From contig CBDCWG010000001.1 of the NCBI GenBank assembly GCA_965223345.1, forward strand, positions 128,001-192,000: 64,000 nucleotides of DNA, written 5' to 3'. This DNA is from Nitrospinales bacterium (GTDB taxonomy: Bacteria > Nitrospinota > Nitrospinia > Nitrospinales > VA-1). Made by a program: the position numbers and the translations under genes. How positions within the stretch are numbered: position 1 is the first letter of the stretch; every line of letters begins with the position of its first letter. The notes below the pieces were generated by a model. It had not been told where the DNA came from. It saw nothing but the letters and a program-made list of their open reading frames with translations, and ran no database searches. Shown in pieces: positions 5,419 through 25,212 of this stretch.

Positions 5419-5696
5419 AATCTGAACCTCCTTTTGAAAATCGGATATCGGGAAAAATGTGAATTCCTCTGGATGCCCGGGTCATTGTTTGCTATCCAGT
5501 AGATAAAATCACGTTCCGGCGCTGTCAAGCCGGGTGGCAAAAAAATTATAAATTCAATAATATCAATGATTTATGGTTGTCTGGGGCGGTGGGAGAGGGG
5601 GCGGAACGCCCGTTCAGGCAGGCTCCAGCGGGAGCGGGCCTATCGGATCAGGAGCCGGGTCGAAAGCCGGGGGCGGCACGCGCAGGCTCGCCGTTT

Positions 5697-5765
5697 GGGG
5701 AAAAAGTTCGAACCGAAACCCAAAAACGCGGTGCGGCGTGAGCAAACTCCCCCCACGGGGAGTGG
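5697..5765 (-). repeat. tRNA-linked ~70 bp trailer repeat, copy A
   Basis: 52/69 ungapped identity (hand count) to 23289-23357; begins at the CCA of the displaced tRNA-Val 3' end. Confidence 0.8.
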
Positions 5766-5808
5766 TGGGCGCGACAGGGTTCGAACCTGTGACTTCTGCC
5801 ATGTGAGG
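5763..5808 (-). repeat. Displaced 3' half of tRNA-Val(CAC), an att site of the island
   Basis: Minus strand reads CCTCACATGGCAGAAGTCACAGGTTCGAACCCTGTCGCGCCCACCA. An 18 bp core (5791-5808) is identical to 11407-11424. Confidence 0.92.
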
Positions 5809-6526
5809 TTTGCAAGTACAAAATCCTTCACCCCATTCAAATTGGGTTATAGCTTTATAAAATGGTTGTTTGGCAGTCGTCGTTTCAGTTCTTCGTTCAC
5901 TCGAAAATTCCCAAGTTTCCCATCATTTACCAGCTTTTATCAGGATTTTGGCTTCATCAAGGCTCGGCCTGGGGAGGTAGATTTTAAATGGTTCCGGCGA
6001 ACCATCTCCCCGGTCGGGCTACCGGCAACACCGATGGTGAACTCTTTACGGCGGAATCAACAAAAGGAGTATGCCTAATGTGACACATAATTTATGAAAA
6101 TGCACACATAGGGTGTGTCAAAAAGTTCTCCATACTCAAAAACTGCCTCACTCCAACTCTAAACTCCATCAACCCGGCCCCAGAGTCCACCATAAACCCT
6201 TCAAAAAAAATTAGAAACAAAATACAAAAAACTTCCGGAAACACTTGCCGTTGAAACGGGTGGCGGGGGTGATCATTATTATTTCCGACACCCTCCATTC
6301 AAAATCACGTCTACCATAGGTATGGCTATCGAGGTATAGATCCATACCTCACCAGAAAGATTATCGGGCTAATTCTGGCGCATAGGAACAGGAACTACAT
6401 TTCTGCGCTGAATGTGCTGTGTCTCGGACAAAATTAAAAGAAAACATACATAATGACCATCAGGAAAAAGCCACCCACCACCCCGGGAGCCTTCGGGCTC
6501 CTGGGAGTCGGAGGCCGATCCATTTA

Positions 6527-7699
6527 TCAAATCCAACCAAGCGATCGAAGTTTTTCCAAGACCCAATCAGAATAAAGTCGGCTGCCTTCCGCATTGAGGT
6601 GTACATAATCTTCCGGATGCATGATATCCGTTATGCGGAGATTGTTCGATTTCACCTTCTCCTGCAACGAAAGAAACTCAATGCCGTTTGTATCGGAAAA
6701 TTCTTTGAGAAGCCGGGTGACTTTTTCAAAATCGAAGACATCGCCATATTCTTGGGTACTCCATGCTTTTCGGGCAGGGGCAAGAACATTTCCGTACACG
6801 CCCTCCACCAGAAGGAATCGAATCCCCTGTCCGACAAGGAACTGTTTCATTTCCTTGATTATTGCAAACAAAAGTTTAATACGGTATTCATCATCCGAAC
6901 TGTAGATTTTCTTATAAGGGGTCAGTTCTATTTGAGCTTCAAGAGGCATCGAATCGTAAAATTTCCCCATGGGATGACTTCTCAATAGCAGGGTTGCTTT
7001 GCGATAAAAAAAGGATATTCTCGAAAGGCCATCATGAATTTTATCCCATTGGGAGGAATAACGATTTTCGGATTTTAAAATTTCATTAGTGTAGGGATAT
7101 GGGAAGCCTTTCAATATCAGAGAATCTGGGTTTTGGGTATCAAGCTGGAAGTAAGGTTTATTCATATGAACATTGTCATAAATATCATTGATGCAAAAAG
7201 TATAAATGACAATGTCCGGAGAATATTTAATCGCTTTGTGTTTTAGGAATAGAAATACCTGGTCAGTGGAAAATCCGCGCGTCCCCAAATTGAGGACTTC
7301 CCATCGATCCGCCAGGGCCGCTTCCATGAGAACCTGTGCGCGCTGCTCCTCCTCCGCCTCCCAGAATTCCGTGGTAGAATCACCGACCAGTGCGATCCTT
7401 GGTTTTTTCTTAATGAACTCGCGCTCCCTGTCGGTGAAACCGTGGCTGTTGTTCCGCACATACTGCTTGGTTCCGTCCTGGTACAAATAAACATAACCCT
7501 CGGAGCCGGGGACCTTGACCCATCCGGTGATCGGATCGTCTTTGTAAAAACCGGGAGGATGGTGCGGCCCTCGAATATCCAGCACAAAATAAACGAACAA
7601 TTCAACAGCCATTAAAGGCAGGAAGATGCCCAGAGTCATCAAAAGCAACCGGGCCGCCCATTCCGATTTGGGGAAGGAATTATTCTTCAGAGTTCCCAT
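6527..7699 (-). CDS. Membrane-anchored SGNH/GDSL hydrolase family protein (SxtL/AlgJ-like)
   Basis: N-terminal TM helix; blocks ALVGDS, NLGTRG, CINDI and DYVHLN. Likely start is ATG 7699. Confidence 0.85.
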   Translation of the reverse strand: MGTLKNNSFPKSEWAARLLLMTLGIFLPLMAVELFVYFVLDIRGPHHPPGFYKDDPITGWVKVPGSEGYVYLYQDGTKQYVRNNSHGFTDREREFIKKKPRIALVGDSTTEFWEAEEEQRAQVLMEAALADRWEVLNLGTRGFSTDQVFLFLKHKAIKYSPDIVIYTFCINDIYDNVHMNKPYFQLDTQNPDSLILKGFPYPYTNEILKSENRYSSQWDKIHDGLSRISFFYRKATLLLRSHPMGKFYDSMPLEAQIELTPYKKIYSSDDEYRIKLLFAIIKEMKQFLVGQGIRFLLVEGVYGNVLAPARKAWSTQEYGDVFDFEKVTRLLKEFSDTNGIEFLSLQEKVKSNNLRITDIMHPEDYVHLNAEGSRLYSDWVLEKLRSLGWI

Positions 7700-7780
7700 A
7701 ATTGCTTCCGTTCCAGCACAAAAAAACTGCACCCTTCATGACTAGCTACAAAAACTCGTAAGAAGGGAAGCGACTTTGGA

Positions 7781-7933
7781 TTAAAACAATGTGTAGATGA
7801 AGGGTGCGACCGCCGAGCCCTGTGATAGAACGATCAAAGCGCCCATCAGCAGCATCGTCACAATGATGGGTGCGAGCCAAAATTTTTTGCGTTCCCTCAT
7901 GAATGCCCACAAATCTTTGATCAGATCCAGCAT
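7781..7933 (-). CDS. SxtK-like (DUF5989) small membrane protein
   Basis: MLDLIKDLWAFMRERKKFWLAPII...APFIYTLF is the characteristic sequence; start overlaps the upstream stop. Confidence 0.88.
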   Translation of the reverse strand: MLDLIKDLWAFMRERKKFWLAPIIVTMLLMGALIVLSQGSAVAPFIYTLF

Positions 7934-8337
7934 CAGAATGGTCTCTCCATATGTTGTTTCGGTAACACCCGGCTTTTGACTCGGTAGGTAGAAAGATCGG
8001 CGTCTATTTTCCGGGCAAGGGGGTCCTTGCGAAAAATCCGCATCACCCGTCCCATTGGAAAAATCATAAGATAAAACACAAGTCCGAGAAGGATTCGCGT
8101 GTTCACCCATCCCAAGACAAAGCCGACCTTCATCCAGCCGCGGTAGATCGGTTGCAGAGCCATGGGAACCAGCCCTGCAAGAAGCCACAATGTTCCGGTC
8201 AGGACCCAGGGCCAGGTCGGAATTTGTTTCCCGAATGCAAACGGCAGCAGCAGTCCGAATAGCACCGCGACGATCGCCCCGGTTATCAGGCCAAATTTAC
8301 GCAGTTCCTGTTTGTCGAGTTTCTTTATCGGTTCCAT
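7933..8337 (-). CDS. SxtJ family membrane protein
   Basis: ELRKFGL...PIYRGWMKVG..LGWVNTRILL..FYL.IFP.G...KDPL...MERPF pattern; lies directly after a carbamoyltransferase. Confidence 0.88.
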   Translation of the reverse strand: MEPIKKLDKQELRKFGLITGAIVAVLFGLLLPFAFGKQIPTWPWVLTGTLWLLAGLVPMALQPIYRGWMKVGFVLGWVNTRILLGLVFYLMIFPMGRVMRIFRKDPLARKIDADLSTYRVKSRVLPKQHMERPF

Positions 8338-8340
8338 GCA

Positions 8341-10179
8341 TCAATCCAGTTCAAATTCATTTTTCCAGTCGTCTTTCTCTTTCCATTCGGGCTGCTCGGA
8401 TTTTTTGATGAGAATGTTTTCCAAGACCAGGTAATCCATCTCCGTCCGCATGAAGCAGCGGTAGGAATCCTCTGGCGTGCAGACGATGGGTTCCCCGCGC
8501 ACGTTGAAGGAGGTGTTGACCAGGACCGGGCATCCGGTGTGCTTTTCGAACGAATCGAGCAACTGGTAAAAACGGGGATTCGTTTCTTCGTGCACGGTTT
8601 GAATGCGTGCCGAGTAATCGACATGCGTGACAGCGGGAATCTTCGAGCGGGGCACGTTGAGTTTGTCGATGCCGAACAGTTTCTGTTCTTCTTCTGTCAT
8701 GAGGATACGCAGATCTTCCCGGACCGGAGCCACGAGCAGCATGTAGGGGCTTGCGGATTCGATATCGAACCACTCCGACACTTTTTCAGCCTTCACCGCC
8801 GGAGCGAACGGGCGGAACGATTCCCGGTATTTGATCTTCAGGTTCATGACCGACTGCATTTTGCGGCTTCGGGGGTCGCCGATGATGGAACGCCCACCCA
8901 ATGCGCGCGGTCCGAATTCCATGCGTCCGGCGCACCAGCCGATGACATTCTCTTCGGCCAGCAGTTCGGCCAGCCGCGGCATCAATTCCTTGTCTTTCAA
9001 AAAATGGTAGGGGGCCCCGATGCTGTCGAGATACTTCCGGACGGACTCGTTGTCAAACCGGGGTCCCAGGTAGCTGCCTTGCATCGAATCGGATGGCTGG
9101 ACCTTGCGGGGGCGATCGTGAAATTCATGCCACGCGGACAATGCCGCGCCCAGCGCGCCGCCTGCGTCTCCCGCCGCGGGTTGAATCCAGATGTTCTCAA
9201 AAGGGCCTTCTCTCAAGATCCGTCCATTGGCCACGCAGTTGAGCGCCACCCCGCCTGCCAGGCACAGGTTTCGTTTCCCCAACTCTTTGTGAGCGGTGCG
9301 CGCCAGACGCAATACGATTTTCTCGGTCACTTCCTGGATGGAACGGGCGATGTCCATCTCTCGTTGATGTAGTTTCGTCTCGGAAGTCCGCGGCGGTCCG
9401 CCGAATAAATCGTGAAACTTGCGCCCGGTCATGGTCAGGCCGGTGGAATAATTGAAATACTTCATATTGAGACGGAAAGTCCCGTCTTCCTTGAGATCCA
9501 CCAGGTTATCCAGGATCGTGTCCACGTATTTGGGTTCGCCGTAGGGAGCCAGCCCCATGAGCTTGTATTCGCCTGAATTGACCTTGAAACCGCAATAGTA
9601 GGTGAATGCCGAATACAGCAGTCCTAAAGAATGTGGAAAGTCGATCTCCCACTGTGGCGTGAGGCGGTTGCTTTCCCCAAGCCAGAGAGAGCTGGTGGCC
9701 CATTCACCCACCCCGTCGAGACACAAAACGGCGGCCTCCTTGAAAGGGCTGGCAAAAAATGCTGAAGCTGCGTGCGAACGGTGGTGTTCGTTGAAAAGCA
9801 GAGAAGGGAGGTCGTTTGCAGCCACCTCACCCAGGGCGGCGAATTCTCTTTTCAAGACGGTCTTTAGAAACAGTTTTTCTTTCAACCAAACCGGCATGGC
9901 TGCCACGAAAGAACGGATCCCTTTGGGTGCGTGACCCAGATAGGTTTCCAACAGGCGCTCGAATTTGAGTAAGGGTTTGTCGTAAAAGACAATGTAATCA
10001 ATATCCTGAAGGTTGCAGCCCGCTTCTTCGAGGCAATAGGCGATGGCTCGGGCGGGGAAACCCGAATCGTGCTTTTTGCGCGTGAACCGCTCCTCCTGTG
10101 CCGCGGCAATGATTTCACCGTCATGCAATAAAGCGGCAGCACTGTCGTGGTAATAAGCAGATAATCCAAGAATATTCAT
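8341..10179 (-). CDS. O-carbamoyltransferase, NodU/CmcH/SxtI family
   Basis: Motifs YHDSAAAL, EERFTRKKH, HHRSHAASAF, DGVGEW, GEYKLMGLA, GGVALNCVAN, EFGPRALG, RESFRPFAP, NTSFNVRGEP. Confidence 0.96.
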   Translation of the reverse strand: MNILGLSAYYHDSAAALLHDGEIIAAAQEERFTRKKHDSGFPARAIAYCLEEAGCNLQDIDYIVFYDKPLLKFERLLETYLGHAPKGIRSFVAAMPVWLKEKLFLKTVLKREFAALGEVAANDLPSLLFNEHHRSHAASAFFASPFKEAAVLCLDGVGEWATSSLWLGESNRLTPQWEIDFPHSLGLLYSAFTYYCGFKVNSGEYKLMGLAPYGEPKYVDTILDNLVDLKEDGTFRLNMKYFNYSTGLTMTGRKFHDLFGGPPRTSETKLHQREMDIARSIQEVTEKIVLRLARTAHKELGKRNLCLAGGVALNCVANGRILREGPFENIWIQPAAGDAGGALGAALSAWHEFHDRPRKVQPSDSMQGSYLGPRFDNESVRKYLDSIGAPYHFLKDKELMPRLAELLAEENVIGWCAGRMEFGPRALGGRSIIGDPRSRKMQSVMNLKIKYRESFRPFAPAVKAEKVSEWFDIESASPYMLLVAPVREDLRILMTEEEQKLFGIDKLNVPRSKIPAVTHVDYSARIQTVHEETNPRFYQLLDSFEKHTGCPVLVNTSFNVRGEPIVCTPEDSYRCFMRTEMDYLVLENILIKKSEQPEWKEKDDWKNEFELD

Positions 10180-10577
10180 AACAACCCAATTTGAACAAAA
10201 GGAAAAGTCTATTTCTTGGAAAATTAATTCAAGGAGACATTAATAATTCGTAAAAGTACCATAAAATTATTGCGAAAATTTTATATTAAACCACCCTGGC
10301 CACTAGGGAGGGAGAGGCAAAAATTCCACTAGCCACTTGTTTTCAAAAATTTAATGCATTCCTGGCAGTCCTCAAAAAAATAATTGCCAGAGTAATTACC
10401 TGCCCCGATAATTTGTACCACCTTCTATGTTAGAGCCTACACCTTGAGGGTGGGGACCCCCAAATGGGTTTACAGGGTGAGAGTAAACCTGTCAAAAAAG
10501 CACCTTATTTTTCTATTTTAAATCCAGGTATAGGTGAGAGGGGTTGCTGAAAACTCTGTCGATTTCCTTTACTGAGT

Positions 10578-10760
10578 TCATTTTTTCACCTTTTTTCTTC
10601 TTTTGGGATCCCATTGCCCATCTCGAATCCATTTAAAAAATAGTTTTTCGTCAATCATAATTCGTCGGCCCGGCCGGAGAACCGCTCCCAACTCTTCTAA
10701 TCCATTATTTTCACTGTTAGAAACGTAGAAATTCAGCACTCCATTCGACAAGGTTGATCT
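10578..10760 (-). pseudogene. Remnant of an excisionase-like small DNA-binding protein
   Basis: ...NSENNGLEELGAVLRPGRRIMIDEKLFFKWI resembles small HTH proteins found next to integrases. No convincing start; it abuts the truncated integrase. Confidence 0.5.
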
Positions 10761-10773
10761 GCCTGATGCCGAT

Positions 10774-11343
10774 GTGAAGTATATCCGGTTCCTAAAGCCT
10801 GAAGAAGAGAAGGTCCTGTACCCAGCACTCAAAGCACATCCGTGGCTTTTCCCGGTGGTTCTGATTGCAAAGGAAACCGGGTTCCGCAGGTTCAACCTTT
10901 GTGGTCTCACTGTTTCCCAACTGAATTTCAAGGATAGGACCATTTATATGGGAGAAACGAAGAACGGGGAGCCGGTTCTTCAACCCATGACTGACGGGGT
11001 TTACCGGGAGCTTCGCGGGTTGATCATTTCCCCGGACAGAAACCCAGACCATCCGGAGGTCTTTCAGCTAAACGGAGAACCGTTGAAGGGTCAAACCTTT
11101 TATCAGGCGTTTAAGCGGCTGTGCGTCCGTTGTGGGATTGAGGATTTCCGGGGCCACGATCTGCGACATGACTTCTGTTTCAAGCTGTTTCAGGCAGGTG
11201 AGCAACTGGCAACGGTGGCGGTGTTAGCTGGACGCAATGATATCCGGAGCACCCGAAGGTATTCGCACCCGGATACATCAGGAAAGAGGAAATCAATCTC
11301 GAAACTGAAGCCTTTCGGCTTCAAAACGGCTTCATCTGATTAA
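10774..11343 (+). pseudogene. Truncated tyrosine recombinase/integrase (catalytic domain only)
   Basis: TGFR, TKNG, HDLRH and RRYSH are present. The usual LGH appears as AGR, and there is no N-terminal binding domain. Adjacent to tRNA-Val. Confidence 0.82.
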
Positions 11344-11381
11344 AGGGAATCGAGTGAAGACTGATAACCCCTTAAAAAAAA

Positions 11382-11453
11382 TGGGCGCGGAAGGGTTCGA
11401 ACCTCCGACTTCTGCCATGTGAGGGCAGCACTCTACCACTGAGTTACGCGCCC
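11382..11453 (-). tRNA. tRNA-Val(CAC), CCA not encoded
   Basis: GGGCGCG-TA-ACTC AGTGGTA GAGT-G-CTGCC CTCACAT GGCAG-AAGTC-GGAGG TTCGAAC CCTTC-CGCGCCC-A forms a full cloverleaf. Confidence 0.95.
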
Positions 11454-11476
11454 GCTGTGGGGGACTGGATCGAGGG

Positions 11477-11908
11477 TCAGTCGTCTCGATCGCTATTGCT
11501 TTTCAACTGATTGACAAACGCCTCGCGTTCCCGGCGCAGTTTTTCCTTGAACTGATCGACGCCGCCGTACTTTTTGGCATAACGATTGCGGATCTGCTCC
11601 ACGCTGCGGATCTTGGTGGCGCCGTCGCCGACCAGGCAGTTCCCCGCTCTGTCGCAGGCCCAGATGGGGAGGTCCTTTTCCACCTGATCGCGCAGGTCTT
11701 CCGGGATGTTGTCGTTGTGCGGCAGCCCGGCATAATTCGCATCGACCCGTTCCTCGATGCGGTCCAGCTCTTTCACCAGATCCTCGATCTTTTCGCCGTC
11801 CCAGGCTCCGACTTCCTCCTCCCCGTCGGCGGACATAATGCGGTTTTTCAGACGCGGATCGATCTTCACTTCATCGAGCGAGAAACGCCTGCGATGTTCT
11901 TCCGCCAT
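11477..11908 (-). CDS. Hypothetical protein
   Basis: 143 aa ORF with GAGG RBS and host-like codon usage. Confidence 0.7.
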   Translation of the reverse strand: MAEEHRRRFSLDEVKIDPRLKNRIMSADGEEEVGAWDGEKIEDLVKELDRIEERVDANYAGLPHNDNIPEDLRDQVEKDLPIWACDRAGNCLVGDGATKIRSVEQIRNRYAKKYGGVDQFKEKLRREREAFVNQLKSNSDRDD

Positions 11909-12054
11909 GATAAAATCACCTCAGTGCAAACATTGGAGAGGAACGCCTTCGATTTCCGGAGCGGTCTTTATTTTTAGCACTAATCCCAAATCAAAAGCAA
12001 ATTTCCTTGCGGGATCGGCTTTCCGATACGTTCACGAAATACTAGGTACAAATC

Positions 12055-12375
12055 ATGGCGAAAGAACACGATTGTCCCATCGAGAGCGGCAAACTCAAAC
12101 CCACCGACGTGAAATGCCCGGTCTGCAGGAAAGGCGTGCTGGCGCCCGGGCGCGGCCGTTTCGGCGTCATCTGGAAGTGCGACGCCGACAGCAAACCCAG
12201 GTGCAAATTTTATACGGAAACGAAACCGACGGGAAAAAAATGCAGCTTCGTCCGCGACCACGGCAAAAAATGCGGCGCGCTCATGGTCGAAGGCACCAAG
12301 ACCATCCCGGACCGTTGCAGCGAAAAAACCTGCCCCAACCGCAATCCCCACAAACTGGCGAAAAACGCATCCTGA
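12055..12375 (+). CDS. Stand-alone topoisomerase-type C4 zinc-ribbon protein
   Basis: CPVC...GRFGVIWKC......C followed by a second Cys set (CSF, CGALMV, CSEKTC). Confidence 0.75.
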   Translation: MAKEHDCPIESGKLKPTDVKCPVCRKGVLAPGRGRFGVIWKCDADSKPRCKFYTETKPTGKKCSFVRDHGKKCGALMVEGTKTIPDRCSEKTCPNRNPHKLAKNAS

Positions 12376-12391
12376 ATCCCGTACTGGAATT

Positions 12392-12775
12392 TCAGTAGTA
12401 CGCGCCGTACAGAATGAGGGCGGAAAGCACAATCGCCGCGCCGCCGCCCACCGTGCAGTAGGTGGCAAGGAAACGCTCGCCCGGAATCCATTTCAGCATG
12501 ACATCCGGCGCCAGCAGGAACAGCGTCGATTTGATCACCGCGATCCAGCCGATGAGCGTCACGATGACGGACGGGCTCATCGTCCAGTGGTTGTGCACCG
12601 TGACCACCGTGAGACCGATGATGAGACCGGTCAGCGCCGAAAACGGCAGCGACAACGACTGCCGGTCGAAATGAGTCACGAGATTGATCCAGAATTTTTT
12701 CTGCAGCACTAGAGACCAGCCGAGAATGAAATACAGGTAGCCGACGATTTTTTCCACGACGAGAGCGAGTTCCAT
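12392..12775 (-). CDS. Membrane protein with about four TM helices
   Basis: MELALVVEKIVG...; VHNHW...VTLIGW...K motif; hydrophobic throughout. Confidence 0.7.
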   Translation of the reverse strand: MELALVVEKIVGYLYFILGWSLVLQKKFWINLVTHFDRQSLSLPFSALTGLIIGLTVVTVHNHWTMSPSVIVTLIGWIAVIKSTLFLLAPDVMLKWIPGERFLATYCTVGGGAAIVLSALILYGAYY

Positions 12776-13004
12776 GATGAGCCTCGAATTGTAAGGTTGC
12801 AGGAGAAGGATGGATCGCAATGCCTCACTTGAAAAATAGGTCCTTTTTGCAGAATAACAACCGGTAAAAAACGCGCCGAAAGCCTCGGTGCGCAAGGCCC
12901 GCAAGGGCTCATCCCGGCATTTGAATTTTTTTAGGTTTTATTTTACAAACCGCAGACCTTGCGAGACGCCGTGTTGTTTGAGCGTTGGCAATCCGAAAAA
13001 AATA

Positions 13005-13043
13005 TTGATTTCTTAAAATAGGTGTATATACTCATAATTATGA
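13005..13043 (+). promoter_or_regulatory. Sigma-70-like promoter with an adjacent palindrome
   Basis: TTGATT-16-TATACT followed by the perfect palindrome TCATAATTATGA (13032-13043). Confidence 0.5.
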
Positions 13044-13085
13044 ATTGAAACCAAAACCTTCAATGCGAGAGAAGGGAGGGAGAGC

Positions 13086-13841
13086 ATGAACTTTTCCTCA
13101 ACACAGCTGTTATTGAGCATCGAACTGACCTTCCTGCTGGCGATCGCCTGGCACAGCCAGCGCCGGGCAAAGCCGCAGCCCCCGACGGGGGCGGTCTATC
13201 TGTATATTTTGTGGATCGTCCTGTTCAGCATTTTGGCCGGGGTGCTGGGCGCGCGCGGCGTATACGTTTCCGAGGCGCTGTTGCCGTGGCTGCCGGGGCT
13301 TTGGCTCCAGGGAGTCACCGTCGCTGCCGTCGTGCTGCCAGTCGTCCTGTTTGCCGCCGTCCGCAACGGCATTCGCCGCATCGTCGATGCCACGCCCTGG
13401 CATTGGTTCGCTTACTTTCACGCCCTGAGAATCGCGGCGATCGGCACCGCTTACAAAGCGTGGATCGGCGCGTTCCCGCTGGCTTTTGAAATCGCCGTGG
13501 GCATTCCCGATCTGCTGTTCGGCTTGTCGGCGTTCTGGGTTGCGGCGAAAGCGAAACGCGGGGAGATCAGCGAGCGCGGTTTCATGATCTGGAACGGCAT
13601 CGGGTTTCTCGTCATCGTGCCCGCGGCGCAGATCTTTCTGCAGCTCGGTCTGCCCGGCCCGCTGCAGGTGTTCACCGCTCTTCCGGATTCGCGGGCGGTG
13701 CTCACCTATCCCATGTCGGTCGCATCCATGGTGGGGGTTCCGTTGTTTGTGCTGATCAACCTGGCCGTGGCGTGGCGTCTTTGGGAGAGGACGGCAAAGG
13801 AAACACCGGGCCTGGACACCCGGCGGGTTTCCATTAAATGA
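13086..13841 (+). CDS. Multi-pass membrane protein of unknown function
   Basis: GGGAGG RBS; about 7 hydrophobic segments. Confidence 0.75.
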   Translation: MNFSSTQLLLSIELTFLLAIAWHSQRRAKPQPPTGAVYLYILWIVLFSILAGVLGARGVYVSEALLPWLPGLWLQGVTVAAVVLPVVLFAAVRNGIRRIVDATPWHWFAYFHALRIAAIGTAYKAWIGAFPLAFEIAVGIPDLLFGLSAFWVAAKAKRGEISERGFMIWNGIGFLVIVPAAQIFLQLGLPGPLQVFTALPDSRAVLTYPMSVASMVGVPLFVLINLAVAWRLWERTAKETPGLDTRRVSIK

Positions 13842-13849
13842 GGTCAGGG

Positions 13850-14653
13850 CTATTTTCTGGCGACGAACAGCAGGTGGTTGGCGGTGTGCCAGGGTGCGAT
13901 CTTTTTCAGCATTGCGGCGATCCATTCCGCCGCCCAAGTGGTCTGGCCGAGAGTGTCTCTCTGAAAGCATTCGCAGAGCATGAACAACGAAAAACTGTGG
14001 GACACCGGGGCCTCCACCTCGATGTGAAAACCGGCGGCTTGCAAAATTTTGCGCATTTCCTGCTTGCTGTGCAGTTTCATGTACAGGTCGTGCTCGTGCG
14101 AGCCGTCGAGGGCGGGTTTCCCCGCGATGCGGCGGACCCACGGATTTGTCCGCAGTCGTTGCAGAACATTGTCGGGGTTGTGGATGAACCGGCTCAAAAA
14201 ATTGTCCGCCGGAACCATCATCAACAGGACGCCGCCGGGTTTCAGAATGCGGCGCGCTTCCCGGATCGCCGCGTCCGGGCCGTCGGGAAAATGCTCGACC
14301 ACGCCATAGGAAAGGTAGGCCCCGAACGTATCATCCGGAAACGGGCAGTGATGCACATCGGCGCAGGCCAGCTGCAGGTCGGTGCGGAAATGTTTGAGGC
14401 GGGACAGCGCCGAGAAAACGAAATCGACGCCGACGATGCGGTGCCCCTGTTCGCGGAAATAGATCACTTTCGGGCCCAGCCCGCAGCCCGCTTCCAGTAT
14501 CAGTTCCCCTTTCAGCAGGAAACGCTCATACAGCGCGCGTTCCTCACGGGCGCGCGGGTAGTCGTTGGTCTTGAGCAACGCTTCGATATCGTTGCGCGAC
14601 CATTCCTCCTCAAACTCCACCCGCGTCTGATCGTATTGTTCGCTGGAATCCAT
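13850..14653 (-). CDS. Class I SAM-dependent methyltransferase
   Basis: Motifs ILEAGCGLG, VGVDF, GVVEHF, RILKPGG; GGAGG RBS before ATG 14653. Confidence 0.88.
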   Translation of the reverse strand: MDSSEQYDQTRVEFEEEWSRNDIEALLKTNDYPRAREERALYERFLLKGELILEAGCGLGPKVIYFREQGHRIVGVDFVFSALSRLKHFRTDLQLACADVHHCPFPDDTFGAYLSYGVVEHFPDGPDAAIREARRILKPGGVLLMMVPADNFLSRFIHNPDNVLQRLRTNPWVRRIAGKPALDGSHEHDLYMKLHSKQEMRKILQAAGFHIEVEAPVSHSFSLFMLCECFQRDTLGQTTWAAEWIAAMLKKIAPWHTANHLLFVARK

Positions 14654-14777
14654 TCGCAACCCTCCGTGATTGTCGCAACGGATCTTAGCAAAAAACCGGC
14701 ATGCGCGACATAATTGCTTTCCGCTAAAGCCGGACTTCAATCCAGCGGTTTCAGGTCGGTGTGGCTCGGAAGGGTTT

Positions 14778-15191
14778 TTAGTTGCCGGTTTTGGCGGCGC
14801 GCAGCTCGACCGTGTTGCCGTCCGGATCCTGGATGTAGATGGATCGGCCGTCGCCCTCGGCCCCGTAGCGCGTTGCGAACTCCGTCGCGGCGATCTGTTT
14901 GTCTTTCAGATAACGGATCAGCGCGTCCTCGTCGAACGGCTCCACCTGCAGGCAAAAATGATCCAGGTTGTTGTCGCCTGCGGTCGGAGCGCCGCCTCCC
15001 CGTTTGCCGAGTTCGCTGTCGATCGCGACGACATCGATCAAACACTCTCCGGCCCGCAACTGCGTGAGGCCCAGTGCTTTGTCCGATTGCCTTTCCACCA
15101 CGCAGCCAAGCACGTCGCAGTAAAACGCGATCAAGCCGTCGGGATTGTCTGTCCGCAACACGATGTGGTCGATTTTCCTGATGACGATCAT
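14778..15191 (-). CDS. VOC/glyoxalase family protein
   Basis: Motifs IDHIVL, FYCDVLG, LDHFCL, SIYIQDPDGNTVEL. Confidence 0.9.
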   Translation of the reverse strand: MIVIRKIDHIVLRTDNPDGLIAFYCDVLGCVVERQSDKALGLTQLRAGECLIDVVAIDSELGKRGGGAPTAGDNNLDHFCLQVEPFDEDALIRYLKDKQIAATEFATRYGAEGDGRSIYIQDPDGNTVELRAAKTGN

Positions 15192-15274
15192 GGGGACGCT
15201 TCCTTGAGCAGTGGGGCGCTCACTGCGGGTTTAAGGGAATGCGGTTTTCTATCCCCGGATTATACCAGACCCGC

Positions 15275-15814
15275 TTACAGTTCCTCTTCGGTGTAGCGCG
15301 GCGTGATGTGCTGCGGACAGTTCCAGTCGAACGCGTGCACACGCAGCACGACGATGCGTTCGATCTTCGCCTTGTAGTCCGGCAGGGAGACTTGCTCAAG
15401 CAGCTCCAGATTCGAGTCCGCATCGAGGATTTCGGCCTCCGCCCAGATTTTCAACCGCTGCTGCTTGGCGTAATCCATCAGGAACAGCACGGTTTTTTTG
15501 TTGTCCAAGAGATTCCCGGTGCTGATGTATTGCCCGTTGCCGCGAAAATCGGCGTACGCCAGCGTGCGGTCGTCCAGGACTTTGAGAAATCCCTTGGGGC
15601 CGCCGCGAAACTGCAAGTAGGGCCAGCCGTTTTCCCCGACCGAGGCCAGGTAAAATCCGTCCCGGTTTTTGATGTATCCCTTCTCCTGCCAGGTCAAGCG
15701 GTTACGGAAATCCCCGGCCTGCTCCATTTTTGCGTACGAGCTGCGCGTCCCGTATTTCATCTGCTGGGCTTTGACGCTGTTGGTGAAAGCGAGTTCGGTG
15801 AAATTCTGTGTCAT
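15275..15814 (-). CDS. Pyridoxamine 5'-phosphate oxidase-related FMN-binding protein
   Basis: Motifs GWPYLQFRGGPKGF, ADFRGNGQYIS.GNL, FLMDY, FDWNCPQHITPR. Confidence 0.88.
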   Translation of the reverse strand: MTQNFTELAFTNSVKAQQMKYGTRSSYAKMEQAGDFRNRLTWQEKGYIKNRDGFYLASVGENGWPYLQFRGGPKGFLKVLDDRTLAYADFRGNGQYISTGNLLDNKKTVLFLMDYAKQQRLKIWAEAEILDADSNLELLEQVSLPDYKAKIERIVVLRVHAFDWNCPQHITPRYTEEEL

Positions 15815-15884
15815 GGTGTCCCTTCCTCCCTGGATAACATTTATCGCCCGTGCCCCCCGCAGCAAGCAGGGGGCGTCCGGTGAT

Positions 15885-16247
15885 TCAGAATGTGAGAACG
15901 TTGTAACCCTGCGCCTGCAGGTTGCTCAGGCTGGGCAGGCCGGTGGTTTTGGGCACCGAATTGTCCTTGATGAGTTCGTAGCCGGAGGTATCGGCGCCGA
16001 ACACATCCGCACAGGCGCAGGACACGCCCTGAATCGTGTCCGCCACCGCCTCGAACAGATCGTGCGCCGGGTGGTCTTGCTTTTCCAGCACTTCCGGCCA
16101 GCGGGTGCCCGCGCCTTGAAAAAGAACGGAGACCTCTTGGCCTGCGTTCTTGAAATCGTAGGCCGCTGCCAGCGCGTTGAAGACGCGTCCCAGCGATTCT
16201 TCGGAACCGTTTTTAGGATCGGATAGTACGATGATAGCCGTTTTCAT
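15885..16247 (-). CDS. DsrE/DsrF-like sulfur-relay/redox protein
   Basis: GRVFNAL, FQGAGTRW, SCACADVFG and a C-terminal GYNVLTF; AGGAG RBS. Confidence 0.78.
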   Translation of the reverse strand: MKTAIIVLSDPKNGSEESLGRVFNALAAAYDFKNAGQEVSVLFQGAGTRWPEVLEKQDHPAHDLFEAVADTIQGVSCACADVFGADTSGYELIKDNSVPKTTGLPSLSNLQAQGYNVLTF

Positions 16248-16341
16248 TTGAGATACTCCTTATTTTAAAATTTTTAGGGAAACGGTCGGGGCAGAATCCG
16301 TGGTCCCGGCGGCGTTTTGTCTTTAATCATCAAGTTTTGGC

Positions 16342-17079
16342 TTATTTGCCTTTTTTCATTGCCACGACGGCTTCCTTTGTCGAGATGACATCGTTCGCCG
16401 TGAACCGGAAATTGACGAGTGCCGCTGCATAGCCGTCGCCTTCAGGAACCTGGGCGGCCGCTGTGGCGTCTTTTACGACCGCGACTTCGAAGCCCTGCTC
16501 CAGCAACTCCCGCAAATGCGACTCCGTGCAGAGATTGGCCGACATTCCAGCGAGGATCACACGGTCGATGCCGCGCTTGCGTAATTGCAGAACAAGGTCA
16601 TTGGTTTCCGGGCCGTAAATCTTGTGCGGACTGGTGACGACCGTCTTGCCGTCATGAATATGGGATTTGTACTCAGGCAGCCAGTCCGCGCCGGAGCCTT
16701 CGAAGCCTTCCGTCGTCAGCGCTCCCGGGCGATCGAACATCCCTATTTTGTGCATCAATGCTTCCAAAGCGCCTTCGAATTTCCAGCCGTGATCCGTCGG
16801 GTAGTAATAGTGTGGGGAAACAAACACCTCATAGCCATTCGCCTTGGCTGCTTTGAACAGGGCCCCGATATTGGCAACCGTGTTGTTCTCGGTGACGTTT
16901 TTCCCCACGACGCCCCAGGTCACACCTTTGGGACTCAGGAAATCGATCTGCGGGTCGGTGATGACAAGCGCCGTATTCGACGTGTCGATGGTCATGCCGG
17001 GGTCTGGCAGCTCCGCGTTCGCCTGTCCGATCATCACCAATGCTGCAACCAGGACGGTAGTCAGATAGGAGTGTTTCAT
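16342..17079 (-). CDS. Isochorismatase-family cysteine hydrolase with a signal peptide
   Basis: Asp-Lys-Cys triad (TDPQIDF, PHK, ANLCTESH); N-terminus MKHSYLTTVLVAALVMIGQANA. Confidence 0.88.
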   Translation of the reverse strand: MKHSYLTTVLVAALVMIGQANAELPDPGMTIDTSNTALVITDPQIDFLSPKGVTWGVVGKNVTENNTVANIGALFKAAKANGYEVFVSPHYYYPTDHGWKFEGALEALMHKIGMFDRPGALTTEGFEGSGADWLPEYKSHIHDGKTVVTSPHKIYGPETNDLVLQLRKRGIDRVILAGMSANLCTESHLRELLEQGFEVAVVKDATAAAQVPEGDGYAAALVNFRFTANDVISTKEAVVAMKKGK

Positions 17080-17137
17080 TTTTATTTGTCCTTTTTTTTG
17101 AGTGTTATGTGATTTGTTTTTTCTGCGATCTAAAAAA

Positions 17138-17485
17138 TCAAAGGGCCTGCTCGATGCTTTGCGCGATTTTCTCTTTGGGTTGCACGCCCACCATCTGCTG
17201 CACACGCTCTGAGTTTTTGAACAGCAGCAGCGCGGGAATGCTGCGGATGCCGTATTGCGCGGCGGTCGCCGGATTCGCATCGACGTCCAGCTTGGCCACA
17301 ACGATGCGGTCGCCGTATTCTTCCGCCAGGGCATCGACGGTGGGAGCCAGCATGTGGCAGGGCTGGCACCAGTCCGCCCAGAAATCCACCAGCACCGGTT
17401 TTCCCGACTGGAGCACCTGGGTTTTAAAATCCGCATCGCTCAGATGCTGCACTCTATGTTTTGTGATCGTGTTTTCCTGTTTCAT
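17138..17485 (-). CDS. Thioredoxin (WCQPC variant)
   Basis: VLVDFWADWCQPC...YGIRSIP. Start is 17485 or 17503. Confidence 0.92.
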   Translation of the reverse strand: MKQENTITKHRVQHLSDADFKTQVLQSGKPVLVDFWADWCQPCHMLAPTVDALAEEYGDRIVVAKLDVDANPATAAQYGIRSIPALLLFKNSERVQQMVGVQPKEKIAQSIEQAL

Positions 17486-17522
17486 TTTTTTTCTCCTTAC
17501 CATGCGCTAAAAAAATTTGCGA

Positions 17523-18260
17523 TCAGTTGCGGCCGCTGACGTAACCGCCGTCCACCGGCAGGATGACGCCGGTGGTGAAGCTCGACGTGGCGAGATGCAG
17601 CACCGCATCGGTGATCTCCTGCACTTCGCCCACCCGGTTCATCAGGGCGACGCCGCCGAGAGCGTCCACGTCCGATTCGCCGTAGAGGGGAGTGCGGATC
17701 ACGCCGGGAGCGACGGCGTTGACCTGGATGCGGTCCTTCGCCAGCTCGCTCGCCAGACTGGTGGTCAGCGCGTGCACGCCGCCTTTGGTGATCAGCGCGG
17801 CACTGGCGGGCACACCGGCCATCGAATGGTTGATGAGCACGGTGCCGATGTTGACGATGTTGCCGCCGCCCTGTTTTTTCATCTGCTTCACCACCGCCTG
17901 CGTCACGAAATAGGTGCCCTTCAGGTTGATGTGGATGTAGCGGTCGATGTCCGCTTCGGTGTTCTCCAGAAACGGTTTCAAGCCGAAGATGCCGGCGTTG
18001 TTGAGCAGCACATCGGCGCTGCCGAAGCGTTCGACGGCGGCGGCCACCATCTTCTCGCCGGTTAGCCGGTCGCCGATGTCGTCGGCAACCAGGGCGATGC
18101 GGTCCGGCTCGCCGAGCTCCCGGGCGGCCGATTGCAGTTTCTCCGGGCTGCGGGAATTGAGCACCAGGTTGAAGCCCTGTTTCAGAAAGCCGCGGGCGGC
18201 GTCGAGCCCGATGCCGCTCGAGGCCCCTGTGATCAGTGCGGTTTTGTTTTGGGTCGTCAT
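17523..18260 (-). CDS. SDR family oxidoreductase with an atypical active site
   Basis: TGASSGIG, NNAG, VNAVAPG and VDGG present; AALITK stands in place of YxxxK. Confidence 0.9.
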   Translation of the reverse strand: MTTQNKTALITGASSGIGLDAARGFLKQGFNLVLNSRSPEKLQSAARELGEPDRIALVADDIGDRLTGEKMVAAAVERFGSADVLLNNAGIFGLKPFLENTEADIDRYIHINLKGTYFVTQAVVKQMKKQGGGNIVNIGTVLINHSMAGVPASAALITKGGVHALTTSLASELAKDRIQVNAVAPGVIRTPLYGESDVDALGGVALMNRVGEVQEITDAVLHLATSSFTTGVILPVDGGYVSGRN

Positions 18261-18327
18261 GGGTGTCACCTCCGAATTGATTGGGTGGGTCGGTTGTGTT
18301 TCACAACCGCTGCCTGCTCCGGTATTT

Positions 18328-18343
18328 AGCAGGATCGGTGCCA
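18328..18343 (-). promoter_or_regulatory. Sigma-54 -24/-12 promoter of the SDR operon
   Basis: Minus strand TGGCACCGATCCTGCT (GG-N10-GC), divergent from a bacterial enhancer-binding protein gene. Confidence 0.82.
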
Positions 18344-18505
18344 ATCGTTTGAAGCGTGTGTAAACTGTTTGTATTTATGGGGTTAGTCGGTCTCGCGTTT
18401 TTTCGGGGTGGTGGCGAAAAATCGCTATTGGTGGAAAATCGTGATGTGTTATTGTGGATGTGACGGAATATCGTGATCAATGATTTGAGCGAGGAGCCTG
18501 AAGCC

Positions 18506-19996
<1,491 letters not shown>

Positions 19997-20196
19997 TCCA
20001 GCGCCTTGACTTTTGTCGCACCAGGGTCACCCAGTCCCATTGTTCTTCAGGAGAGCTGACCCGATCGTTCCCCTTCTCCTGAAAACAGGAGATCGCCGTC
20101 GCTGAATTGTGGAGGTGGCCGAAGACCCCTTGAACACGGCCAGCGCGAAATGAAACAAAATGACTGCCTCAAACTGCTCACAAAAACGATAAGGAT

Positions 20197-21521
20197 ATGA
20201 CTTTCAGGCGCAGAATCGGTGCTGAGCGCATCATGTTGATGCTGCCGCTCAATGTGGTCATGGTCGGACGCATCAGGGGTGAGGTGAATGCCTCTAAGAT
20301 CAGAAATGCACTGGAACTTCTCAGGCATCGCCATCCGCTTCTGTCCGTGCGGGTGGAGATCGATGATGAGAGTACTGGCTGGTATGTTGCTGAAGGTGTT
20401 CCTGAGTTCAAGGTGTACGTTGAGCAGAGACAGAGCGAGGGACAGTGGATTGCCCGTGTGAAAGAAGAGTTCCGCGTACCGTTCCCTTTGGAGACAGGTC
20501 CACTTGTACGTTGTGCCCTTATTCACTCGCCGGAAACATCGGAGATTGTGCTATGTGGACATCACGCTGTCTGCGACGGGATGTCACTTGGATACCTCCT
20601 TCGTGACGTACTCAGTCTCCTGGCTGAACCGGAAAAGCAGGCCGTTGAGTCGTTGGACCCTCCAGTCATCGACTCGACCACGGTGCCCACTCCACCCTCG
20701 ACAAACTGTCTTCTTCGATTTGTTGTGAGCAGAATCAACAAGAATTGGTCGGCGAAGAATATCAGATTCGGGGAGGCAGAAATGCGGCAAATGCACGAGG
20801 AGTTCTGGAAAAAGAATGAACAAGCAAGGGTGCTCGCCTGGAGCATGGATTCGGAGTTAACTTCCGCTTTGGCAGAACGGTGTCGCGCTGAAAAAGTAAC
20901 GGTCAATTCTGCTCTTTGGACCGCATCCTGGCGGCGCAGTCCGACATTCAGGGGCATGGGCAAAGTTTTCGTCAGCGCTCGGCCCTGGCGGTAAACAACC
21001 GGGGCAAACTCACGGTCCCCGTTGGGGAAGCTTTCGGGTTCTTTGCCTCCTCGCTCACACTGAAACTGCCTTATTCTCCCCGTGTCTCTTTCTGGGACAA
21101 TGCAAGAAGAGTGCATTCGAAGATTCTATACGGCCTATCGAGGACAAACATCTTCAGGATGCTCTCTGCAGAAGCGCTCCATCCTACGCTACTCGATTCG
21201 CTTTATTTCAATAAGTATGGACTGCTGGACGAAACGATGCCGAAGGTGTTTCTGCGCAAAATGGGGTGGGACAAAGTCACCTATGGTTATGCACTGACCA
21301 ATGTCGGCCGATTTGAAATTCCGACAACCTATGGGTCACTTCAGCTCGAATCCGTCTATGGGCCTTCCGTCTACTCCGATGTCGATGAGAAAGTAGTCGG
21401 AGTGATCACTGTGGGTGGATGCTTGTCATGCATCCTCACTTACAACGAGCGTATTGTTGGTGATGGTGCAAAGTTGAAAGAAGCTGCGATGGAGCATTTT
21501 GAAAAGGCAATACGCCGCTGA
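20197..21521 (+). pseudogene. Frameshifted condensation-domain/PapA5-like acyltransferase
   Basis: HHAVCDG motif in the first ORF. The protein continues in another frame from about 20926 (SALWTA|LAAQ). Confidence 0.75.
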
Positions 21522-21665
21522 AAAAAAAATTCCGGTATTTAAGATCCACACCGTCAACGCCATCCACCGTCGCCTTGTTGGTGAAAGCGGATAATTTGTC
21601 CAAATAGTCTTTCGCCATCGATCGCAACTGCCCGATACCGCGCAGGTAGAGGCCTCCCGCTTATG

Positions 21666-22238
21666 CTAACGCTTCACGGGAACATCCTCGTGTTCCCGGC
21701 AGATCTTCTGGCTATCGGTTTCCGACAGGGGTTCCAGAGTCAACCCACAACGATAGCTATTTCCCTCCTGTTCAAAGAAACGGCAGGTCCGGCAAACACC
21801 GAAGCTGCGTGAATCGGTCGCCCGCTGCAACCCGCGCAGAAGCTGCATCAGGCTCTCCTCAAGATTCTTTTTCTCTTTTTCGGTCAGAGAGTCCAGCACC
21901 TCAACGAGTAGCGGGGGAGGGATGGATTTTCGCACGACCGCTTTTCCTGAAGCGGTGAGAGAGAGCCGGACGACGCGCCGGTCTTCCCGATCCTGCCGTT
22001 TTTTAATCAGCCCCTTTTCCTCCAACACCAACAGCGACTGGGACACGGTGCCCTTGGTCTGTCCCAGGTAGTCCGTCAACGCCGCCGGCGTGTCGCTGTA
22101 CCGGTTGCATTGCGAAAGGTAATGCAGCGCCTGCAGATGGATCGGCTGCAATCCGTATTCCTGCCCGAGCAGGCGGTCTTCATTGCGCAGCAGGTTCCCG
22201 ATGCGTTCGATGATGTGATGGAGCTGATTTTTTCTCAT
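21666..22238 (-). CDS. MarR family regulator with a C-terminal four-Cys motif
   Basis: Winged HTH (TKGTVSQSL..LEEKGLI...DRRVVRLSLT) plus CRTC...C...C. Start is 22238 or 22256. Confidence 0.9.
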   Translation of the reverse strand: MRKNQLHHIIERIGNLLRNEDRLLGQEYGLQPIHLQALHYLSQCNRYSDTPAALTDYLGQTKGTVSQSLLVLEEKGLIKKRQDREDRRVVRLSLTASGKAVVRKSIPPPLLVEVLDSLTEKEKKNLEESLMQLLRGLQRATDSRSFGVCRTCRFFEQEGNSYRCGLTLEPLSETDSQKICREHEDVPVKR

Positions 22239-22244
22239 AAAAAT

Positions 22245-22314
22245 ATGGTATCGCATCGAAACTAACTTGACAAGGCAAATGTGGGTGCTATATTAGTATT
22301 GAGTCAATACTAAT
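22245..22314. promoter_or_regulatory. Divergent promoter region with two operator palindromes
   Basis: TTGACA(22267)-16-TATATT; perfect 11-1-11 palindrome ATTAGTATTGA-G-TCAATACTAAT (22292-22314); degenerate copy at 22245-22265. Confidence 0.8.
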
Positions 22315-22342
22315 TGAGTTTCCCTTTTTCTGGAGGTGTTGC

Positions 22343-23074
22343 ATGACGAAACCACTCTATTTTTTGTGCTTTTTGGCTTTATCGCTGGGGGCCGCATCCC
22401 CGGCCGGGGCCCATGCCATCGAATCGGCGAAAGATCCGTCCGTGGTGCAATCGTTCGATCTGGTTCGCGCCCGGGTGCATGTGGATGGGCCGGATCTGGT
22501 CTTCGATCAGGTGGTGGCGGACAAGGCAGGGGCCCTGAAACCCACCCCCAGGGGGCAACTGGCCGGCAGCGATGTGTACAGTTATGTGTGGCCGACCTCG
22601 CTCAATTCGTCGGATGTGGGGTTTGAAGCCGATCAGGGGATTCTGGCGCTGGCCATGACGGCCCATCCTGATTTTGATGACACCCCCCTGTACGATGAAA
22701 ACCGCGACGGCAACCCTAAAAACGACGGCGATCTCTGGCACAGTCACTGGGTCGTCCTGGTGAAGGATGACGCCTGCGGTCCGGACGCGTTGAAGGTCAA
22801 GGACATTCCCGAAGGCACGCATCCCAGGTTGCCGGTGACGTGGCCGGAACTCCCCATCCTCATCGACAGCCCCGGTTACGAGCCCCGCCTCAAGGACGAT
22901 GCGGTCACGATCCGGGTCCCTTTAAAGGATCTGGCTTTTCAGACCGACTTTCGTTTTGACGGCGTGACGGCCGGCCTGCGGGTCAATGAGAGCGTCCACA
23001 ACCCCCTGCTGTGCGTGGTGGATGTGCACGACGTCGCGTCTGTGGATCTGAGTCTTCCCGGAGCGGTGGAGTGA
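22343..23074 (+). CDS. Secreted protein of unknown function
   Basis: GGAGG RBS, signal peptide ending AGA, motifs HPDFDDTP and WHSHWVVL, two Cys in the mature protein. Confidence 0.82.
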   Translation: MTKPLYFLCFLALSLGAASPAGAHAIESAKDPSVVQSFDLVRARVHVDGPDLVFDQVVADKAGALKPTPRGQLAGSDVYSYVWPTSLNSSDVGFEADQGILALAMTAHPDFDDTPLYDENRDGNPKNDGDLWHSHWVVLVKDDACGPDALKVKDIPEGTHPRLPVTWPELPILIDSPGYEPRLKDDAVTIRVPLKDLAFQTDFRFDGVTAGLRVNESVHNPLLCVVDVHDVASVDLSLPGAVE

Positions 23075-23212
23075 GAACGGCTGGCATCGGACTGGCGGGT
23101 TGCGGCCTGCCAGTCCACCGCCTGAATTGCATAGCTTGAAAAGGTGGGGAAGGTTGCAACGAAAAATGGGCCCCGGCGCAAACCGGGACCCATTCTGATT
23201 TGATGTGAATGG

Positions 23213-23357
23213 CGAAAGAAAATGCAAACCGAAACCGGATGGTCTTGCCCGTTGTGAGCAAACCCGCCCTCCGCGGAGGAGTGGGGCAGTGGGAAAAGTC
23301 TGAACCCGAGCCAGGAAACAATGCACGGCGCGAGCAAACTCCCCCCACGGGTAGTGG
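23213..23357 (-). repeat. tRNA-linked trailer repeat, tandem copies B (23289-23357) and C (~23213-23284, degenerate)
   Basis: B matches copy A. C keeps AACCGAAACC-N17-GTGAGCAAAC...GGAGTGG with the same spacing as copy A. Confidence 0.72.
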
Positions 23358-23431
23358 TGGGCCCACCAGGATTCGAACCTGGGACAACCCGGTTATGAGC
23401 CGGGGGCTCTAACCAACTGAGCTATGGGCCC
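23355..23431 (-). tRNA. tRNA with CAT anticodon, most likely tRNA-Ile2 (lysidine)
   Basis: GGGCCCATAGCTCAGTTGGTTAGAGCCCCCGGCTCATAACCGGGTTGTCCCAGGTTCGAATCCTGGTGGGCCCACCA. It has a paired 1:72 position and lies just downstream of rpoD, near where E. coli ileX lies. Confidence 0.9.
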
Positions 23432-23445
23432 CCGTGTAAAGGGGG

Positions 23446-25212
<1,767 letters not shown>

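Follow-up and report, generated by a model that had tools for sequence, protein, structure and literature searches.

A short repeat with an interleaved two-helix core at tRNA ends and stop codons of Nitrospinales, possibly a non-autonomous REP-like element

Introduction

In the insertion sequence (IS) family IS200/IS605 and in the TnpA-REP system of repetitive extragenic palindromic (REP) sequences, the cleavage site is chosen by pairing with a guide tetranucleotide (PMC8266576, PMC3333891). The guide GTAG selects CT cleavage sites, and GTGG selects CC (PMC8266576). A REP sequence is recognized by GTAG or GTGG located 0-2 nt 5' of a stem of at least 7 bp (PMC6006769). The spread and site choice of REP-like repeats are an open question. 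Here, we describe a repeat of about 80 nt that is present in three copies in a 64,000-nt stretch of a Nitrospinales genome (positions 128,001 to 192,000 of contig CBDCWG010000001.1; the window). It belongs to a family of a single lineage of marine nitrifiers, with a sharp placement rule by which copies begin at the discriminator base of a tRNA, at its CCA, at a stop codon or at the foot of a hairpin.

The repeat is real and ordered, and it is apparently undescribed in print. No paper on intergenic or palindromic repeats of Nitrospina was found, and the genus does not appear in the available part of PMC3733652, which excludes its consensus figure and all supplements. The reading that we favor, with a probability of roughly 0.55, is a dispersed non-autonomous repeat akin to REPs and bacterial interspersed mosaic elements (BIMEs), carrying a pseudoknot-type cap and moved by a single-strand DNA enzyme acting in trans. 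The repeat probably represents a selfish, mobile mini-element and not a signal for tRNA processing.

Structure of the core

The first 17 nt of the repeat form a core of two interleaved helices, in which positions 1-4 pair with 10-13 (helix 1) and positions 7-9 pair with 15-17 (helix 2). In an alignment of 148 copies, built from almost every variant core plus a sample of those with the consensus, 95.8% of cells are paired, and the pairing drops to 41-67% in slid controls. All seven pairs vary on both sides with compensatory change, at a level matched by 0/500 shuffles, and the covariation to which the preliminary description had looked is thereby borne out. The structure was derived from the same sequences, so these figures are not probabilities. 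Both helices are perfectly paired in 408 of 543 copies, which fall into ten helix-1 and five helix-2 sequence classes. Seven helix-1 classes have at least 4 copies and four helix-2 classes have at least 27, a diversity that is hard to get without constraint. These variants are a natural series for mapping what an enzyme reads. A third helix (positions 21-24 with 34-37) is weaker, being 80% paired, and tolerates G-U pairs on the sense strand.

The geometry of the core differs between the two strands. On the sense strand, the helices are joined by a one-base link, shorter than a standard H-type pseudoknot requires; on the opposite strand, the geometry is closer to that of usual pseudoknots. The two helices may also alternate.

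Placement at gene 3' ends

The position of the repeat was tallied at 114 distinct tRNA or transfer-messenger RNA (tmRNA) ends from the loci retrieved, in which the element is over-represented. A sense-strand copy lies within 40 nt of 55 of these ends. It begins directly after the discriminator base in 26 cases, after CCA in 22 and elsewhere in 7; 52/55 begin 0-3 nt from the discriminator. These copies span 18 isoacceptors as well as tmRNA. Copies at tRNAs are always sense-oriented, and five seemingly antisense copies proved to be artefacts with 7 mismatches.

Stop codons and hairpins are the other landmarks. Among 335 copies of subfamilies A and B (defined below), 30 begin at distance 0 from a stop codon, and no other distance has more than 8 copies. 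A stop triplet precedes 41 copies, 30 of which sit behind a long open reading frame (ORF). The foot of a perfect hairpin is the starting point of 73 of the 335 copies, and for 61 it lies at distance 1, in all likelihood because the stems are the same ones. The 73 are not all independent, as many have a single upstream module in common. Of 107 copies of subfamily C, 15 are found at position +0 of a stop codon. At one orthologous stop codon, the hairpin module at +0 varies from relative to relative, and the placement rule is therefore common to a wider class of modules in the lineage.

The stop codon of a XerD-like integrase gene (L709-L738; G000:C12:1332335-1333132) is a hot spot for various hairpin modules. 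This gene was considered as a mobilizer and rejected. We read it as a target because it is single-copy (in 52/102 genomes), and ends short of a catalytic tyrosine in most; moreover, the query used did not detect it in family f2, which is rich in subfamily B, and of 31 loci only the smaller part have the element close by.

Exact abutment could also arise after insertion. Loosely targeted insertion may be followed by deletions that erode the spacer until the element abuts an essential sequence. CCA is dispensable, as 17/46 tRNA/tmRNA genes of the source genome of the window (G000) do not encode it, and hence the discriminator and the stop codon would be natural limits of such erosion. The presence of several module types at +0 of one stop also agrees with it. 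However, the distances form a spike and not a gradient, with 30 copies at 0, 4 at 1 and 2 at 2, and subfamily C behaves likewise; the chance that erosion accounts for the rule appears slight.

The family in the source genome

An iterated profile detects 16 copies in G000 at E<=0.01 and none in the reversed genome, and a covariance model gives 26 matches at E<=1. A scan by structure only is noisy on its own (211 matches vs 181 reversed). Six of the 26 matches begin at tRNA or tmRNA ends (the Val remnant, Ile2, Leu-TAA, Leu-TAG, Phe and tmRNA), and two are later units of arrays at such genes. Nine begin 0-1 nt past a stop codon, three at 7-15 nt, and six elsewhere. By our own tallies, tRNA ends are favored over ORF ends (6/47 vs ~10/3501), with an odds ratio of 51.

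The preliminary description, made from three copies, had proposed a lineage-specific repeat attached to tRNA ends and had offered a processing signal in the tRNA trailer, a small RNA or a tiny element that targets 3' ends as its nature. Further copies do exist, with 26 matches in all in G000 and up to 229 copies of a sister subfamily in a relative, and the enrichment at tRNA ends is confirmed by the odds ratio. A family of tRNA trailers is not supported, since first-in-array copies after stops (9 at +0/+1) outnumber those at tRNA/tmRNA ends (6), and the repeat lies behind only 5/46 tRNA/tmRNA genes, leaving 41/46 without it. Of the three options, the tiny element that targets 3' ends suits best.

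The placement and the fold have a possible explanation at the RNA level. The repeat could be a cis-acting RNA element, perhaps a nuclease signal or a small self-cleaving ribozyme of a new kind, that has been repeatedly recruited to generate or protect the 3' ends of RNA at the tRNA discriminator or CCA and behind stop codons. It is always sense to tRNAs, and 48/55 copies lie at offset 0 or +3, both of which are places where tRNA ends are made. The pseudoknot-type covariation and the G-U tolerance of the third helix are consistent with a folded RNA, and the products of two CCA/poly(A) polymerase-family genes in G000 could repair ends that lack CCA. Theta ribozymes occupy the same position (PMC10879173). 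Against an RNA element, 41/46 tRNA/tmRNA genes do without the repeat, a working tRNA-Val has lost it, it is patchy among relatives, and it bursts into mosaics with some copies antisense inside operons. The sense-strand link is too short for a standard pseudoknot, folding of whole units gives z-scores no stronger than -0.8 to -2.1, and 0/335 copies fit a core like that of hepatitis delta virus (HDV) by a self-written descriptor lacking a positive control. Such an RNA element is improbable in our estimate.

Copies in the window

The features of the window that concern the repeat are as follows.

5690..5765, minus strand: repeat copy 1, ~76 bp, with the 17-nt two-helix core at 5749-5765; the displaced tRNA-Val end and the copy share CCA, which opens the latter
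5763..5808, minus strand: 3' half of the original tRNA-Val(CAC), an attachment-site remnant; matches the 3' half of the intact repeat-carrying tRNA-Val of G001
5810..11381, no strand: 5.6 kb insert between copy 1 and the working tRNA-Val, absent from the same-genus genome G001
11382..11453, minus strand: working tRNA-Val(CAC) (ARAGORN), without encoded CCA and without a repeat behind it
23206..23281, minus strand: repeat copy 3, second unit of a tandem pair, nearest of the window copies to the family consensus
23282..23357, minus strand: repeat copy 2, 76 bp, core at 23341-23357; begins right behind the discriminator base and provides CCA
23355..23431, minus strand: tRNA with CAT anticodon, likely Ile2, labeled Met(CAT) by ARAGORN; downstream of rpoD (23446-25212)

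The CAT tRNA is inferred to be Ile2 because two other CAT tRNAs exist in the genome. The Val copy (5697-5765) and the Ile2 copy (23289-23357) align without gaps at 52/69 positions, as had been reported, whereas the best of 100,000 shuffles reaches 37; the 20 bp core common to both also stands. The third copy matches the Val copy at 42/69 positions and the Ile2 copy at 36/69. It keeps the 10-N17-10 spacing seen earlier and starts on the minus strand at 23281, 76 bp after the second copy. The repeats had been placed directly after the CCA, but the CCA lies inside those intervals and constitutes the first three bases of the element itself.

The Val and Ile2 copies have CCAC/GTGG as helix 1 and CCC/GGG as helix 2, and the pairing of CCAC with GTGG over the CCA end, predicted from the first inspection, is helix 1. 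Their core starts with CCA, and the opposite strand of the helix is altered to match; therefore, both the tRNA end and the helix are kept. This is a case of a repeat supplying the CCA of a host tRNA while retaining its own pairing. In G001, an intact tRNA-Val carries the 3' half found in the window, followed by the repeat, and the 5.6 kb insert is absent. The insert has thus displaced the old Val end together with its repeat. The GC content of the insert is 48.6% vs 57.6%. Its genes encode a carbamoyltransferase, a GDSL/SGNH hydrolase and a DUF5989 protein (5810-11381), and no integrase is found among the four ORFs scanned. The Ile2 trailer shows 0 differences in contigs of three public runs, which come from one study and are not independent, and no joint deleting a window copy is present among the public-contig matches listed.

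Distribution and dispensability

The lineage specificity proposed earlier holds. An exact pattern, searched in one genome per species, occurs in 49 stretches; 47 of these lie in records whose title names Nitrospinota, Nitrospinaceae or Nitrospina, and the other 2 have Nitrospirae in the title. The covariance model matches 58/120 genomes of the phylum, 57 of them within the order. Plasmid and phage records contain no place covering 80% of the unit. Viral contigs yield 0 matches, apart from two short ones that resemble chance matches in coding-like sequence and 20 raw matches to a 17-mer. Three subfamilies are distinguished.

Subfamily A: core CTCC..CGC/GGAG..GCG; 22/120 genomes; up to 106 copies (G063)
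Subfamily B: helix 2 CCC/GGG; 38, 31 and 20 copies in three genomes
Subfamily C: core CCAC..GGC/GTGG..GCC; 38/120 genomes; up to 229 copies (G071)

Copy number thus ranges among relatives from 0 to 106 (A), 38 (B) and 229 (C). Tandem periods group at 73-81 bp and at 94-96 bp, and in high-copy genomes the repeat is mixed in mosaics with other short hairpin modules. Tandem arrays, inverted pairs (present in subfamily C) and mosaics of hairpin modules are features of BIMEs. At three loci (L641, L645 and L701), the 17-nt core recurs by itself every 19-25 bp, and so the core can act as a unit without its body. About half of the subfamily-B copies of G037 are grouped at C1:1.53-1.85 Mb, near the turn of the GC skew from negative to positive.

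Individual sites are often empty. The Leu-TAA site is without the repeat in both relatives in which Leu-TAA was detected (2/2), the site orthologous to a repeat-bearing stop of a protein gene is empty in 5/5 relatives, and the CAT-tRNA locus has the repeat in a minority of 30 genomes. From the bursts, empty sites, mosaics and dispensability, we infer a selfish non-autonomous element.

Arrays and unit ends also bear on copying through RNA. In a scheme resembling a short interspersed nuclear element (SINE), a reverse transcriptase (RT) would copy the unit from a tRNA-like 3' end and switch template to a tRNA or mRNA 3' end, and the cDNA would recombine into the gene. Fungal retroplasmids do so with tRNAs (bioRxiv 10.1101/792986). 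The head-to-tail arrays suit this scheme, tRNA ends, stops and hairpin feet are all plausible RNA 3' ends, and a T-loop-like motif and CCA close many subfamily-A units. However, subfamilies B and C have no such tRNA-like end, C contains inverted pairs, and RVT_1 has no match in G000, in the 106-copy G063 or in 11/11 genomes of genus g20. RT is present in 17/102 genomes, and 0/23 RT loci carry the element. We give this scheme a small chance.

An 80-nt element that seeks RNA 3' ends, its cap being a new class of self-cleaving ribozyme that releases tRNA ends or the head of a SINE-like RNA copied back behind discriminators, CCA ends and stop codons, is unlikely. Were an RNA reading correct, it would add either a new class of ribozyme or a SINE-like element of bacteria.

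Proposed mechanism and the search for an enzyme

Single-strand DNA cutting and joining is favored because the first two bases of the element obey the guide rule against positions 12-13 across subfamilies. The helix-1 classes CTAC/GTAG and CCAC/GTGG match the reported rule for CT and CC cleavage sites. In the proposed mechanism, the core would fold in single-stranded DNA, and helix 1 would act as the pairing of guide and cleavage site as in IS200/IS605 and TnpA-REP, thereby setting the 5' boundary of the element. An enzyme acting in trans would cut and paste the element as single-strand DNA. tRNA ends, stop codons and hairpin feet would be the points on the non-template strand where joining is tolerated or the DNA is exposed. 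Arrays are proposed to grow because the unit's own end serves as a target.

Strand usage provides a further indication. In G001, 47/51 matches and 25/28 loci are on the plus strand (sampled genes 171/156), the pattern expected of strand-specific insertion, and the contig concerned has predominantly positive GC skew. Positive skew is found nearly throughout G001:C2 (3.25 Mb) and G000:C12 0-2.8 Mb, suggesting very unequal replichores.

A mobilizing enzyme was sought among Y1, IS110, RT, GIY-YIG, DUF559 and GxxExxY proteins, at the best 23-30 loci of each. Neighboring ORFs were also clustered, and two sets of representatives (150 selected out of 215, and 87/102) were compared with Pfam; almost all are housekeeping or unassigned, and Mrr, endonuclease I, rve, SNase and integrase have single matches.

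Several results weigh against a DNA enzyme of this kind. No Y1 transposase is found in G000 or in the 229-copy G071, and at 26 Y1 loci subfamily A is adjacent to none and C to two, as a lone copy, in genomes that are incomplete and may hold orphan repeats. The element is beside 0/30 of the best IS110 loci, 0/28 GIY-YIG, 0/29 DUF559 and 2/30 GxxExxY loci, and no cognate enzyme flanked by it occurs among the loci and neighboring ORFs scanned. G000 shows only a weak strand bias and G037 none, and wobble counts do not show which strand folds. A REP-type stem (14-19/24-31) is unsupported in the subfamily A alignment, with 77% pairing and 389/500 shuffles as good. The sharp stop-codon peak does not follow from DNA cutting by itself, and the RNA-level rivals explain the placement better, but not the dispensability.

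Repeats can outlast their enzyme. This is seen in a second repeat family, which has 80 matches in G000 vs 1 reversed (C8:1130-1190, C12:370500, C12:2692810, C12:3172350 and others) and is of the type that borders, at L144 in G063, a Ssn-like GIY-YIG gene; in G000, a gene of this kind was not found. The search also returned Y1 transposase-like genes of ~330 aa with short terminal inverted repeats (L086, L102, L089; TIRYT-like), and a TIRYT-like repeat end is located just behind an element copy at L121 and L063. Three short GIY-YIG genes stand in tandem with a 562 bp period at L566 (G048:C1:634633-635972), and DUF559 (G005:C46) and GxxExxY (G006:C17) genes occur in tandem pairs likewise.

Comparison with known systems

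The Rfam search that the preliminary description had proposed gives no match: only tRNA and tmRNA are found at the gathering threshold, and nothing meaningful up to E=10 on 14 loci. A consistent target-site duplication, expected of an IS end or a miniature inverted-repeat transposable element, is not found; terminal inverted repeats are not obvious in the unit sequences, for which no formal test was made. Neither window site has, on the element strand, the GC-rich stem and following T run of an intrinsic terminator.

The tRNA-linked repeats (TLRs) of E. coli, behind tyrT and other genes, are alike in forming tandem units directly behind tRNAs, a likeness drawn in the preliminary description. 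Local tandem duplication of tRNA 3' ends, or remnants of island attachment there, could leave such units, and unit ends faintly resemble their own tRNA (mean 2.4 vs 1.7 nt). The likeness does not extend further. Across 54 loci, no repeat of a tRNA end exceeds 7 nt, against 18-19 in TLRs (PMC8144298), the family is not confined to tRNA/rRNA operons, and the same core stands behind unrelated genes. The TLR-like origin is largely refuted.

Theta ribozymes are alike in having their first base a few nt from tRNA 3' ends of many isotypes, where CCA is often unencoded. Unlike them, the element starts with C, is chromosomal, and also follows stop codons. Identity with theta or other HDV-like ribozymes by fold (PMC10879173) was rejected, G1 with a nested P1/P3/P1.1 core occurring in none of the 335 copies searched with the self-written descriptor. 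The repeats that flank Ssn (GIY-YIG) and DUF559 genes are also small hairpin repeats, and they share genomes and intergenic mosaics with the element. It is other repeats, not this core, that flank those genes. A Ssn target repeat (PMC11893778) was rejected on this ground, as the element is at 0/28 GIY-YIG loci and the Ssn-like gene of G063 has other flanks.

The closest likeness is to GTAG REPs, BIMEs and REP doublets forming hairpins (REPINs), which are likewise short extragenic palindromic repeats with lineage-specific bursts, tandem or inverted clusters and positions near stops (PMC3733652, PMC12306157). The family is not filed as a GTAG REP because the defining stem was tested and is not found. 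Should it prove to be no more than an orphan REP-like family, its importance would be modest, that of a lineage marker not described before. Among the 26 Y1 loci of these incomplete genomes, no flanked RAYT was found; unlike in REP/RAYT systems, placement at tRNA ends is exact. The GTAG/GTGG tetranucleotide is shared by subfamily C and the window copies; unlike in GTAG REPs, its full complement lies 5 nt upstream within the element, and a second interleaved helix covaries.

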